Shown here piece by piece: positions 56,301 through 62,300 of a stretch of DNA of 64,000 nucleotides; positions within the stretch are counted from its first letter, which is position 1, and each line of letters begins with the position of its first letter. The position numbers are program-made. Origin of the DNA: Escherichia coli (GTDB lineage: Bacteria > Pseudomonadota > Gammaproteobacteria > Enterobacterales > Enterobacteriaceae); NCBI RefSeq assembly GCF_041248615.1, contig NZ_CP158425.1; one strand, given 5' to 3'.

Positions 56301-59300
56301 AAGCTTTGGCGTTGAAATCGAGCGTACCTGGCGGGAACTGCATGGCGAACCATGTTTCCGGCTGCATGAATCCCCTCCTGTCCGGCAACAGATTATCGTT
56401 TCCAGAAGTTTTGGTCAGCGCCTTAATGAGATAGGCAAGCTACATGAGGCAGTTTCATTTTTTACCGCCCGGGCGGCAGAGCAGCTGCGCAAGGATGGCT
56501 CGTGGACCCGTCAAATCACAGTCTTCATTCAGAGCAGCAATTATGCGCAAGGTGAAAACCGCTACAGCAATTGTGGTATCGAGCCGCTTACCGCTACACA
56601 GGACACCCGCGATCTGGTTGATGCAGCCATGACCATCCTGAACCGCATTTACAAACCCGGGATAGCGTATGCGAAAGCTGGGGTAATGCTCTCCGCTATG
56701 ACTGACGGCACAGAGCAACTCAGCCTGTTTGATGAGCGCCCGGCCAGGCCTGGCAGTCAGGCACTGATGAAAGTTATGGACCGGTTCAATAAAGAAAAGC
56801 GCGGAGCTCTGTTTTTGCTGGGGGAAGGCATTCAACAGGATTTTCGTATGAAACAGGCCATGCTATCACCGAGATATACGACCCGCTGGGATGAATTACT
56901 CGTTGTAAAAGCGTAGCGGCCATGACCGGCATGGCCGTACTCATCAAAAGTGAAAGTAACTTTAGGCCCCGCGAGCTTTTTCGATTGCGCCCTGCAAAGT
57001 TGCTGCGTCCATAGCCCCGGGGATAAATGTGGTAGTCGCCGCATTCGGCTTTTTCATATTCATAATGATGAAGCCGGGTGTGCCGGTGATCCCAAGCGCT
57101 TCGCCCAGCTGCATGTTGCCGGAGATCACGTTTTCATATCGGTTTTTTTCCCTGTCAGAAAACGTGCTGTTAAACCCTGACTTATCCACCACAGTATTAA
57201 AGTCGCTGAGTTCGAATTTGCGTTGAGAGGTCATGAAGGTATGAGCCACAGCCATCAGGTTGTTGTGGTATTTACGATAGGCTTCAGCACCGAAATTCTG
57301 ATAGACGTGCAGACCCGTAGCGGCCCCCATGGCAGATACAGGTTTTGAACCGGCAAAAATCGGGAATTCTTTAAAGAAGAATTTTACATCTTTGCTCTGA
57401 TTCATTACCGATTCAACAACAGGTGTAACCCGCATGCAGTAAATACACTGATAGTCGAAGAACTCGATTACCGCGACGTCGGCGTCATCCGGGCCGATGT
57501 TTGGCGTCTCCTTGGTATCCAGCAGAGCTGGCGCATATGGAATTATTCGTTCCACTGAGGCACTTACGTTCTGATTTTCCAGCGCCTTACCTGCTTCCAC
57601 TAAATAATGGGGATTTTTTACCAGGTAAGTAGCGGCAATTTTGCCAATTTCTTCCTCACTGAGCACCTTCGGTTTAAAATAAGTTGCCGCGATTAACGCC
57701 GAGGCAGCGGTAGCAATTACCGCAGAAATTAAAATCGTGGCCATCGGTTTTAAATAAAATTCTTTAGACATAGCTACCTTTATGCTTTTCAGCCTGTTAG
57801 TTATTAACCTGCGATGGATTATACTGGCCCGGTAAATCGGAATTATTCGTGAAACAATGCTTTTTGGAGATTAAAGGATGATTAGGCAGGGCTTTATACT
57901 CACAACCGCAATGCTTTTGAGTGGTTGTGGATATCATTTCGCAAACCAGGTAGATGCGTACGATCTAATGCCTCGTCCTGTTACAAATAAAAGGTTTCAG
58001 ATAGTCCCTCCGGACGAAAGTATTCAGTCCAGAATGTTTTCAGGCCGTTTTGCTGATGGATTAGCAAAAAAAGGAGTCATTATTTCCACTCACCAGCCAG
58101 ATTATGTGCTCAGGTTCCGAATGAGCAGCTCACAGGAGAACATGCAGTATAGCGAGCAGCTTCTTACTGGGGTGACAGGCTACGTTGTAGATAAAAAGAC
58201 AACGAGAACTGACAAGCATGGCGAATCGCATACTGACTATGACTACAGGCCGGTCGATGGGGTAATAGGCACTGAGACGATGTCGCAGATGCACTATATG
58301 CGACAGCTGGATGTCGAGGTATACCCGTCAGCGAAAGGAGCAAAGCAGGTTCTGAAAGTGAGTATGCAAAGCAATGCACCTGTGCCGTCAGACAGCATTG
58401 CTTATTCAGCAATGATCGACGCCTTTACTGATAAATTTGATGCGCCGCTGCGTTCCGGAAATTATGTTGCAGTGATCCCCTGGAACTGAAAGCAGACGGC
58501 GGGAAGAGAATGTTCAAAAGTGACTTTTGGACACGCACATAAACGTGGCTATCGCCCTCCCCCATTAAAATCATAAAGTCGGTAAAGATCGCCCATCGTG
58601 ATGGAATTGGGCTTATTAATGATTAGATACTGTAACTGTTCTTTATGTTGAGTACTGGCGGCTGCATTCATAAGCACTTCCAGGTAGAACTTGTAGCCTA
58701 TGCTTCGCTCTGAATACATATACTGGAACTGCAACAGTAAAATGCCTGACATAACATACAACAGCAGCAGACTGAGTAACACAGTGCTATCAGGCTGTTC
58801 CAGTGCCATACTGACATACCCTGAACCCAGAATGCACAGAAGCCAACCCGTCATTAGAGCAGGCACCCTACGACTCAGACGTTCATAACAACGTTTTATT
58901 ACGGGATCCCGGAGATACTTTTTGTCAGGTATCCCCGTTGCCCTGATGACGAAGTTACTGAGTATCGACATCTTTTTTCCTTCTGGACGCTCTCAGTCAA
59001 TAAATCAGGCCAGGCGCTCATTGAAAGCTACCACGAGCTGCGAATCGGGATTTTTTACCAGTTCGGGCCGGATAACTTTTAGTTGCCTCGTTGGGGCGAG
59101 CTCATCTGTAGGCCTGATGGTGGTATTACCCGGCCCCTTGCGGGTACTGTCGGTGTTTACCTTGAGCTTTTTATTTCCCAGGTAGCTTTCCATCTTTTTA
59201 GAGATGGTGTCACCTGTGGTCGCAACACCAGAGAGTTCCTTTAGTTGTTCACCTTGATCCATTTGTACCGATGACATCAGAAATACGATTCCTGGATCGT

Positions 59301-62300
59301 TTTCCGTTCCACAGGCTCCGTACTGACATTGTGCAGCGAAAACGGGCTGTACACCTACAGCAACCAGCATTAACGTACTCAGTAAAGTAGATTTCATACA
59401 CACCTCTTACAGTCGGAAAAGTTACTTTTGCGCAGCGCCCATTTGGGTCACCAGGTTTTCCGGGCTCAGCCACCCCGTAAATAACTGCGGTTTGCCGCTT
59501 AGTGTCACCATGGTAGGAGTACCTTGCAGCGGGATTGTTGAGGCCACCTGGAAATGCGATTTGATAATGTTTAAGCAAGCCTCATCAGGACGTCCTTCCG
59601 GGATAGTTGAAACCGGATTCATCGCTGCATCCAGAGCTTCGTTTGGCTTTGCTGAACACCAGATTTTGGCCATGTTCCCGGCTACTACCGAGTTCAGTCC
59701 TGCACGTGGGAATGCAAGAAACTTAATCGAAATACCGGCATCAAGATAAGACTTCAGATCATGATGCAGTTTTTGGCAGTATCCACAGGTTATATCGGTA
59801 AAGATAGCAAGCCGGTATTTTTCGTTTGGTGATTTGTAGTCGATGGATTTTGTTTTGGATGCGAATTCCCGGACGCCCATTAAAATGGCCTGCTCAGTGG
59901 TGTTTACCACATCTTTACCTTTCACGTGGAATAAGCTTCCGGTAAAAATGTAATCTCCGTCTTTGCTCACGTAACTTACCCCCTCCCTGGAAATCACCGT
60001 AAAAATATCTTTTACTGGCGAGGGTTCGACGTGCTCGATTGAAAGCCCAATGGCTTTGAGCTTATCCCGGGCTGCATCTGGCAGTACCATTGTATTAACC
60101 GGCTCGGCATTCATCGTGAAGGCGGTACTTAATGAAAGAAGTAATACCGATGCCTTAATAATTTTTTTCATTTATGCTCCTTGAATCGAGCACTAATATT
60201 ATCACGCCCAAAAATTCCAGAATTTTGCTTAAACGCTTAAATCAACGGGTAAAGCCGAAAGAAAGTCGATAGATATATGGGAGAATAGATAAAACGTAGA
60301 TTCAGTGGAGAAATCGTTGTGTTTACACCACCAGCAGATGATGTGAAACCTATTCCCGTTCCTGATGAGATTTACACTCAGTGCATTACGGATGCCGCCC
60401 GCTTCTTCGGAATTGATGCCGAACTGGTTTTTACGTTGTTTGACAATGAAGGCGGTAAGGTTGGTACTTTCAGCAGGAATACTAACGGCACTTATGATAT
60501 TGGCCCGATGCAGATCAACTCATCCAATCTGCCTGAAATAAAAAAGCATTTCCCGACTGTAACGTGGCGGGTTCTGGCTTACGATGCTTGCGCTAGTTTC
60601 TGGGTTGGAACATGGTGGCTCTACAGAAAAATTGTTGATCGCAAGGGCAATGTGTTTGAAGGGATTGCAGATTACAACAGCAAAACCCCAAAGGTACGTG
60701 CAAAGTACATATTTAACTTCATGGTAAAGTACAATCGCCGGATCCAGCAGCGTAACGGGATGGGTGAGCTTTATCAATGGACCCAACAACCTCCTCGATA
60801 CAATGGCCATATAGCTAAAAATGTCCCGGAGCAAAACCCGACTCCTGTTGTTAAATAAATTCAACCTGATATTACAGAAGATCATCGAGTAGCTTGGGTA
60901 CCCCCCCGCAAAAAATTCGCATAGACTCAGGGGTAATAAATTGTCTTTTTCTGCAAGAAATATATTTAAGATTCTCTCTTCTTTCTTGATGCAGAAAAGC
61001 CCTCTTCATGAAGAAGTATGTGTTCCTGAAGAAACAACAGCTGGTTTATGGGGCCCTCTCCCTGATTCGCATGTCGTGCTTTTCTTAGATTTCGATGGGG
61101 TTTGTCACAGGTGCAAAAATGAAACCTTTGAGCGAATGCCATTGGTGGAAAAATTACTGGATAAATGCCCTTCCATGGTGATTGTCATCTCCAGTTCGTG
61201 GCGTGAATGTGCCAGTATAACTTACCTGAAATCTCTTTTCCGGCTACCTTATAGAGACAAAGTCATAGGTGCTACCGATTCGGTATATTTAAAACCTAAT
61301 CAGTCAGGTGTGCGGGCTGCTGAGTGTGAGGACTTTGTATTTTCACATCGAGTTAAAGCATTTATCTGCCTTGATGACGACGAATCATTATTCCCGGTCG
61401 GTTATCCACATTTGCAAAAAACCAATTATTACACCGGCCTCACCGAATCTGATCTTGCAGCTCTTAACACCAGGTATCATCTGCTTATGAAACGTTGGGC
61501 TTCCTGAATTAAAGTAACTTTTACGGAGAGCATGCCCGCATTATCAGTTCTATGCTTCTCCATTTCTGCCCCGGGTCAAAGCATTGCACAGTTGGAAGAA
61601 AACATGCCGGTCTCTTAAGCTTGCTGCTCAGTTTGGTTCCGGTGCTGAAAAACCTGCCAACGGTGCTTTAGGAATTCAGTATTGATGGGTTTACGCAGCG
61701 GCTTAATAAACTCTCCTTGATATGCCGCTAAATCATGATCTACCGCCAAAGCTTCAGCGAGAATGTTAACCTCCAACGTCACCGGATGAATGGCAATCAT
61801 GTTTGCGTCGAAAAGATCGTGTATATCATGGCGTAAGAGCAACCCATTTGTATAATGGTCTACTCCTCCGTTACGATGCTCCATCAGATGAGCAGCCTCA
61901 GTGCGCTGGCGCAGTCTAGAGCCTGTAATCACACATTGGTCATAACAGTTGTTGCGGACGGCTTCTGCAAATGAGGCCTGATCTGGTCGTGTCTCGACAG
62001 TTGTCTTACTACCCTTACGCTTACCCGGTACAGTAGTTTCATCAGGAATATTCGGCTGAAGCTCCTTTTCTTCTATACCATCAGTCTTCATAGCGACCAT
62101 AATCGCGGCCGGTGGAGATTTAGGCTGATCTTCCTGCGATCTTTCGCGGCCACCAACTGGATACCCTAGAAAACCCTCAATGATCTCTAGTGGAGGTAAT
62201 GTAGCGTTTGAACGTGCATAAATAGCGAACTCTGCGGCACGTCCGCCGGGAATATATCTACGTACCAGTATTGGAAGAGAGGCTTCTTCATCTGGTTCCT

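Follow-up and report, generated by a model that had tools for sequence, protein, structure and literature searches.

The question raised by this locus is why genes for periplasmic disulfide chemistry and cell-wall cleavage should lie together near one end of a 64,000-nt stretch of Escherichia coli DNA (RefSeq assembly GCF_041248615.1, contig NZ_CP158425.1; the whole stretch is called the window below), and whether they have anything to do with plasmid transfer. Of the six genes at positions 56962-60858, two encode disulfide enzymes (a DsbA-family protein and a DsbC-type isomerase), one encodes a lytic transglycosylase of the SLT type, and the other three encode a lipoprotein, a small membrane protein (orf140) and a small secreted protein (orf130). 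An initial annotation had read this block as the usual accessory set for assembling a conjugative type IV secretion system (T4SS). We conclude, with a probability of roughly 0.8, that it is a conserved envelope-helper set flanking the Tra1 genes trhF-trhH-trhG of IncHI plasmids. The genes named in the annotation are real and lie where it placed them, with family matches above curated thresholds (Table 1), although its plural "lipoproteins" should be a singular, since the block contains one.

A six-gene block beside the IncHI transfer genes

Window bases 54000-64000 were compared with plasmid records. From end to end this segment is 100% identical to p14408_M1, an E. coli plasmid (NZ_LT599829.1; IncHI2A, MOBH, MPF_F), a window coordinate being the coordinate in that record minus 96000, and it is matched by 1025 plasmid records, 1013 of which are typed as conjugative. 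The block is part of the backbone of an IncHI2 multidrug-resistance plasmid.

The identical plasmid also supplies the flank that the window cuts off. The partial open reading frame (ORF) at 63085-63990, which had been described as Gly/Ser-rich and tentatively added to the accessory set, is the 3' end of trhG: its 304 C-terminal residues are 67% identical to residues 1026-1329 of R27 TrhG (E = 7e-134), and the whole protein, encoded at 159085-163038 of the record, has 1317 amino acids (aa) and belongs to the TraG_N family. The partial ORF thus does belong to a transfer gene, one of the T4SS core and not of the accessory set, and Gly and Ser together amount to only 18.6% of the residues it encodes. 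Past trhG the record continues with trhH, the thioredoxin-fold gene trhF, two regulator-sized genes, mobI (on the oriT side), a MobH relaxase gene, a gene for a TraD-type coupling protein and further Tra1 genes. Annotating the flank in this way places the IncHI Tra1 region just beyond window position 64000, and the prediction that the window ends near transfer genes holds.

Comparison with other IncHI transfer regions shows that the six genes adjoin traF-traH-traG in the same order and orientation in R27 and pHCM1 (both IncHI1). The accessory gene order of the prototype R27 is therefore kept, the sole difference being an extra HNH_2 gene. The same order and orientation recur on a Buttiauxella contig and in a metagenomic lineage, in both of which the block abuts traF-traH-traG directly; with a lipoprotein only 47-51% identical to ours, these are more divergent lineages. 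A still more distant arrangement is found on a Klebsiella MOBH/MPF_F plasmid, where homologues of the transglycosylase (68% identity), DsbC (43%), the DsbA-like protein (41%) and the neighbouring HAD protein (43%) lie beside traF-traH-traG, with unrelated small ORFs between them. The core of the block (transglycosylase, DsbC and DsbA-like genes) is thus all that is left of the six genes there: neither orf130 nor orf140 resembles the ORF found in its place on that plasmid, and at this distance only the core and the HAD gene are shared. The other flank of the block differs among lineages, with umuDC, PLD or ter genes. Within this comparison, which left IncC plasmids outside, the gene arrangement is IncHI-specific.

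Protein identity to R27 falls from 90% for the transglycosylase and 84% for DsbC through the DsbA-like protein (75%), the lipoprotein (69%), the HAD protein (63%) and orf130 (58%) to 45% for orf140. Where synonymous change is unsaturated, the ratio of nonsynonymous to synonymous substitution (dN/dS) against R27 is 0.03-0.21, which marks even the small ORFs without annotation as real genes. Specifically, orf140 is a real coding sequence because its dN/dS is 0.21, and a gene at its position is also present in the Buttiauxella and metagenomic lineages. In the identical record the Prokaryotic Genome Annotation Pipeline (PGAP) calls both the lipoprotein and orf140 too short, at 122 aa and 86 aa; it is their full-length forms that are conserved.

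Table 1. Coordinates of the helper block and of adjoining features in the window
Feature	Coordinates	Strand	Basis and remarks
DsbA-family thiol:disulfide oxidoreductase, 269 aa	56962..57771	-	Pfam DSBA 72.2 bits (cut-off 25.6)
Outer-membrane-type lipoprotein, 203 aa	57878..58489	+	Lipobox LSGC, Gly at +2
Small membrane protein orf140, 140 aa	58549..58971	-	Hydropathy, 1-2 hydrophobic segments; same strand as dsbC, distal
Small secreted protein orf130, 130 aa	59005..59397	-	Signal peptide; dN/dS 0.19 against R27
DsbC-type periplasmic disulfide isomerase, 249 aa	59422..60171	-	DsbC_N 51.6 bits; Thioredoxin_2 59.8 bits
Divergent intergenic region dsbC/transglycosylase, 147 bp	60172..60318	.	Sequence reading; aligned with IncHI1 and Klebsiella plasmids
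Specialised lytic transglycosylase, TrbN/IagB/EtgA type, 179 aa	60319..60858	+	SLT 23.0 bits (cut-off 21.3); orthologue in R27, probably R0130
HAD_SAK_2-domain protein	60941..61507	+	Pfam HAD_SAK_2 72 bits; orthologue in R27, probably R0129; downstream of transglycosylase gene
HNH_2-domain protein, 429 aa	61615..62904	-	Pfam HNH_2 41 bits; nuclease domain C-terminal
Strong intrinsic-terminator-like hairpin	62991..63021	-	12-bp stem then T run, directly 3' of trhG stop codon
trhG, 3' end (last ~304 codons)	63085..64000	-	TraG_N-family mating-pair-formation gene, IncHI Tra1 region; runs past window end

Published experiments on related genes point in the same direction. In R27, genes R0129, R0130 (trbN-like) and R0135 were induced 3.1-3.8-fold at the transfer-permissive temperature of 25°C along with the tra genes, R0129 by 3.8-fold (PMC7366339). 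Counting genes from trhG (R0128) and using the labels in that microarray table, where R0135 appears as "dsbA, outer membrane protein", we find that R0135 is probably the gene for the DsbA-like protein, R0130 that for the transglycosylase and R0129 the HAD gene (PMC7366339). Loss of R27 dsbC in a dsbC-null host lowers transfer about 10,000-fold; Orf206 of Rts1 (DsbA family, a reported homologue of R0135) and Orf248 (SLT) are both needed for Rts1 conjugation; s054 (dsbC) of SXT is essential, while the SXT transglycosylase homologue is dispensable; and loss of trbB causes a 10-fold drop in transfer of F (PMC10838148). In ICEclc the transglycosylase gene is flanked by thioredoxin genes, and the phenotypes are mild and redundant (PMC10018362). 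Together with the synteny in IncHI-type lineages, these data on R27, Rts1, F, SXT and ICEclc back the view that the block is the usual accessory set of a conjugative T4SS.

The proteins of the block and their proposed roles

The isomerase has the two domains of the DsbC type, an N-terminal DsbC_N dimerisation domain and a C-terminal thioredoxin domain whose active site is of the CXXC form (CGYC, residues 129-132), and it carries a second Cys pair, C172/C199. It matches NCBIfam DsbC with E = 1.4e-52 and the PDB structures of DsbC (4npb, 1eej) with E = 1e-43 to 1e-37. Against the model for the chromosomal DsbC equivalog (NCBIfam NF008129) it scores 178.3 bits, below the cut-off of 215 bits, and it is therefore a plasmid paralogue of the DsbC family and not the housekeeping DsbC. 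A DsbC gene is also found inside an Acinetobacter MPF_F tra operon. A distant DsbC match on an IncR plasmid was set aside, as it is not associated with tra genes; a thioredoxin gene on a plasmid thus need not signal a transfer region. Elton and co-workers reportedly found in 2005 that DsbC(R27) and HtdT(R27) rescue the dithiothreitol hypersensitivity of mating in a dsbA host; which R27 R-number bears the name DsbC(R27) is something we infer. Complementation by R27 DsbC has been described (PMC10838148).

The DsbA-like protein has the active site CIYC at residues 109-112 and a loop, G230-T231-P232, that is invariant in the alignment. It had been called membrane-anchored, and a single N-terminal hydrophobic segment (residues 9-32) is indeed present; the anchor itself is unproven, as an A-S-A motif comes after this segment, which might instead be cleaved off as a signal peptide of the ordinary kind seen in IncF-borne homologues. 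The best PDB match is Salmonella BcfH (7JVE; E = 1.5e-35, query residues 37-268), followed by ScsC and Wolbachia DsbA2. The alignment to 7JVE begins by pairing residue 37 of the query with residue 19 of the chain and thus takes in the N-terminal helical region that mediates trimerisation in BcfH (7JVE). With a DSBA fold bearing CXXC and a Thr-Pro loop, and with the N-terminal helical extension, the protein is predicted to be of the trimeric BcfH/ScsC type. BcfH-like DsbA genes, whose products are 31-39% identical to this one, are also found at the distal end of IncF tra operons.

The transglycosylase matches NCBIfam TrbN with E = 7e-23 and EtgA in the PDB with E = 7e-8, and scores under the NCBIfam equivalog cut-offs for TrbN and IagB. 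It has the SLT domain with the expected motifs: Glu44, which aligns with the Glu of the EtgA NES motif and is the catalytic residue, is invariant across 18 homologues, as is the pair Cys22/Cys91, and GPMQIN and DYNS are both present. The start is a GTG at 60319 preceded by a GGAG Shine-Dalgarno sequence, and an in-frame stop at 60286-60288, 10 codons upstream, closes the reading frame. There is no N-terminal Sec signal peptide, and neither the IncHI2 nor the IncHI1 protein has a hydrophobic N-terminus. In the Klebsiella homologues a typical signal peptide precedes the mature N-terminus (AFNPP...), and it is with this mature end that Met1 of the IncHI protein (MFTPP...) lines up. Distant signal-less homologues (31-40% identity) lie on elements resembling integrative and conjugative elements (ICEs), directly upstream of a topoisomerase III gene (topB) and beside UvrD- and DEAD-type helicase genes, outside T4SS clusters.

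Residues L14, G16 and C17 of the lipoprotein are invariant in 13 homologues. Its AlphaFold2 model is confident (predicted local distance difference test score, pLDDT, 88.8), and the modelled fold resembles PelC, TraT, LptE and DUF4136; a lipobox combined with the alpha/beta fold common to DUF4136, LptE and PelC makes it a lipoprotein of DUF4136/LptE-like fold as far as the model goes. Residues 86-150 of the model form a long polar beta-hairpin. We rejected TraT itself, given that the sequence has no match to it and the model has no alpha-helical barrel; a sequence-level match to PelC was likewise not found. Entry exclusion in R27 we take to be the work of other genes (EexA/EexB).

The secreted protein orf130 has a C-x4-C loop at its mature N-terminus and a conserved C-terminal motif, DELAPxRQLKxIRPELV. 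Its true start is the ATG at 59397, the third codon of a 132-aa ORF, homologues aligning from residue 3. The AlphaFold2 model has a mean pLDDT of 51, from which no fold can be inferred; the protein is probably disordered, to judge by the model.

These components suggest how the block could serve transfer. The plasmid would bring its own periplasmic oxidative folding, in the form of the dimeric DsbC-type isomerase and the BcfH/ScsC-type oxidoreductase, and the isomerase HtdT and the thioredoxin-fold TrhF, which are encoded elsewhere on the plasmid, would join this set of folding enzymes. Together they would form or correct disulfides in the Cys-rich periplasmic and outer-membrane parts of the T4SS. 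TrhN, TrhU and TrhH are likely clients because they are rich in Cys (32, 16 and 7 residues in this plasmid), and the transglycosylase, with its invariant Cys pair, may be a further one. A TrbN/EtgA-type transglycosylase would open the peptidoglycan locally and so let the H-pilus and T4SS span the wall. The lipoprotein, the membrane protein and the secreted protein would accompany the helper genes; a part in transfer for these three, and for the HAD protein, is something that their position suggests.

Evidence against a transfer role and competing explanations

Several observations weigh against the proposal that the block serves conjugation. The terminator-like hairpin after trhG, predicted from its sequence to end the trhF-trhH-trhG (F) operon, indicates that the block is not co-transcribed with that operon. 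The helper genes therefore probably form separate transcription units, with dsbC-orf130-orf140 and the DsbA-like gene leftward, and transglycosylase-HAD and the lipoprotein gene rightward. The divergent region between dsbC and the transglycosylase gene presumably holds the promoters of both. A sigma-70 consensus scan found no site there or in the lipoprotein/dsbA intergenic region, and only 2 sites in 6.4 kb, below the shuffle expectation. Nor did any motif shared by the dsbC/transglycosylase region and the promoters of the F, R/H, AC, Z and htdA operons rise above shuffled controls: the best shared 14-mers carried 2-3 mismatches, equal to the controls, and there is therefore no evidence of a common TrhR/TrhY site. 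In addition, the solved structures nearest to the DsbA-like protein are of BcfH, which acts in fimbrial assembly, and ScsC, which acts in copper tolerance, neither of them a conjugation protein, and the transglycosylase, having no signal peptide, has no evident path to the peptidoglycan. Finally, losing a helper of this kind often has little effect, or an effect that the Dsb enzymes of the host conceal (PMC10838148, PMC10018362).

Some of these points would fit a block that is a general envelope-fitness or cargo module, dealing with redox or copper stress or with the folding of other surface proteins that the plasmid encodes, and that is merely parked beside Tra1. The relatives of the DsbA-like protein and the separate transcription units, cut off from trhG by a terminator, agree with this, as do the umuDC genes and variable cargo on the other side and the presence on the plasmid of another possible client, the very large secreted protein RSP with its 8 Cys. 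We nevertheless consider a cargo module improbable, and less likely than a conjugation helper set, given the synteny and the co-induction: the site beside traF-traH-traG is the same even in lineages whose proteins are only about 40-50% identical, in contrast to the changing other flank, the R27 orthologues are induced together with the tra genes at 25°C (PMC7366339), and homologues in Rts1, R27, SXT and ICEclc show conjugation phenotypes (PMC10838148, PMC10018362).

A narrower objection concerns the transglycosylase gene, which might be a decaying remnant whose signal peptide was lost, leaving a cytoplasmic protein and a cluster without a functional cell-wall part. The IncHI1 and IncHI2 copies do begin where the mature N-terminus of the signal-bearing Klebsiella homologues begins, with a stop 10 codons upstream in frame, and the SXT homologue can be dispensed with (PMC10838148). 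Decay is however hard to reconcile with a dN/dS of 0.03 against R27, the lowest in the block, or with the invariance of Glu44, Cys22 and Cys91; the gene is under strong purifying selection despite the missing signal peptide. The signal-less form also occurs in the distant ICE-like homologues, so it is old and maintained, and R0130 is induced at the permissive temperature (PMC7366339). There is thus little to recommend the remnant explanation.

The transglycosylase, strongly conserved yet signal-less, might be exported by a non-Sec route, and the lipoprotein might be an unrecognised ring-forming outer-membrane part of the H-type mating apparatus or of exclusion; we offer the two ideas jointly as a speculation that is more likely wrong than right. 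By analogy with flagellar FlgJ, which is exported through the flagellum's own export apparatus, the non-Sec route may, for instance, be the T4SS itself.

That the genes are functionally unrelated and adjacent by chance would suit the mosaic nature of large plasmids and the three small ORFs without family assignment, but it is excluded for practical purposes by the conserved synteny, as three other IncHI-type lineages have the six genes in unchanged order and orientation, with protein identities of 45-90%, which argue against very recent recombinants sharing a segment.

Neighbouring genes, plasmid context and comparison with known systems

The HAD gene accompanies the block in IncHI1, in IncHI2 and on the Klebsiella plasmid, and is not beside it in the Buttiauxella and metagenomic lineages. 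Its start codon is ambiguous (TTG at 60941 or the PGAP start at 60989), and the protein is probably cytoplasmic; the HAD_SAK_2 domain also occurs in RNA repair proteins of the "Swiss Army Knife" kind. The HNH_2 gene, which has a promoter-like site of its own at 62986-62958, separates trhG from the HAD gene; R27 and pHCM1 lack it at this site. It is an IncHI2-specific insertion, and we do not count it with the envelope module.

On its other side the block meets an error-prone polymerase V operon of umuD/umuC-like (mucAB-type) genes at 55239-56916 (+), convergent with the DsbA-like gene and kept at the same site in R27 with 81-84% identity. The segment 54000-64000 gave zero matches in an Rfam search and no meaningful repeat in a repeat search. 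In many otherwise identical IncHI2 plasmids this segment is split by a group II intron (ltrA), IS5/ISKpn26, IS3 or ISEcp1; the copy in the window is intact.

The remainder of the window is IncHI2 backbone together with a multidrug-resistance mosaic of high GC content at about 16000-50000. The mosaic includes tet(A)/tetR, a sul3-type class 1 integron (intI1, estX, a HAD family hydrolase gene, aadA2, cmlA1, aadA1 and qacL), sul3, mef(B), IS26, aph(3'')-Ib/aph(6)-Id, aph(3')-Ia, a Tn3-family transposase gene and aac(3)-IIe. A plasmid-borne H-NS-family gene at 1735-2139 (-) presumably encodes the IncHI "stealth" type of nucleoid protein that is tied to thermoregulated transfer.

IncHI2 plasmids are major vehicles of mcr, extended-spectrum beta-lactamase and carbapenemase genes, and the helper block is a conserved part of the backbone that would let them build their transfer apparatus. 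Periplasmic Dsb enzymes are under discussion as anti-conjugation and anti-virulence targets; a plasmid with its own DsbC- and DsbA-type enzymes could sidestep inhibitors of the host enzymes. Apart from a few details the block is an already known part of the IncHI2 backbone, with the signal-less transglycosylase and the PelC/TraT-like lipoprotein as modest leads.

Among known systems the closest are R27 and pHCM1, where the block stands beside trhF-trhH-trhG with gene order and orientation unchanged, and from which IncHI2 differs in that a 429-aa HNH_2 gene separates the HAD gene from trhG. For single proteins the likenesses reach further. Among the trimeric DsbA-like proteins BcfH, ScsC and Wolbachia DsbA2, it is BcfH that the DsbA-like protein matches best, over a stretch that includes the N-terminal helix, CXXC and the loop with Thr-Pro; BcfH, however, comes from a fimbrial operon and ScsC from copper tolerance. 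In common with EtgA, IagB and TrbN the transglycosylase has an SLT domain, a catalytic Glu, GxMQI and YN motifs and a conserved Cys pair; it differs from that class in having no Sec signal peptide. Where TraT has an alpha-helical barrel, the model of the lipoprotein has the long polar beta-hairpin instead.

The F plasmid follows the same logic, an MPF_F T4SS with its own helpers: TrbB (a DsbC-like isomerase), TraF (a thioredoxin fold without CXXC) and an Orf169/P19-type transglycosylase, with the Cys-rich TraN, TraU and TraH as presumed clients. The F helper genes lie inside the tra operon, unlike the IncHI block; F TrbB is without the DsbC_N dimerisation domain, and the F transglycosylase has a signal peptide where the IncHI one has none. 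Rts1 (IncT), with Orf206, Orf212 and Orf248, and SXT, with s054, are likewise MOBH/MPF_F systems that have DsbA-family, DsbC-family and SLT genes. The likeness to Rts1 is distant (E = 6e-7 between the DsbA-like protein and Orf206, 1e-5 between DsbC and Orf212), and the Rts1 genes are embedded among traL-traC, whereas the IncHI block lies downstream of traG.

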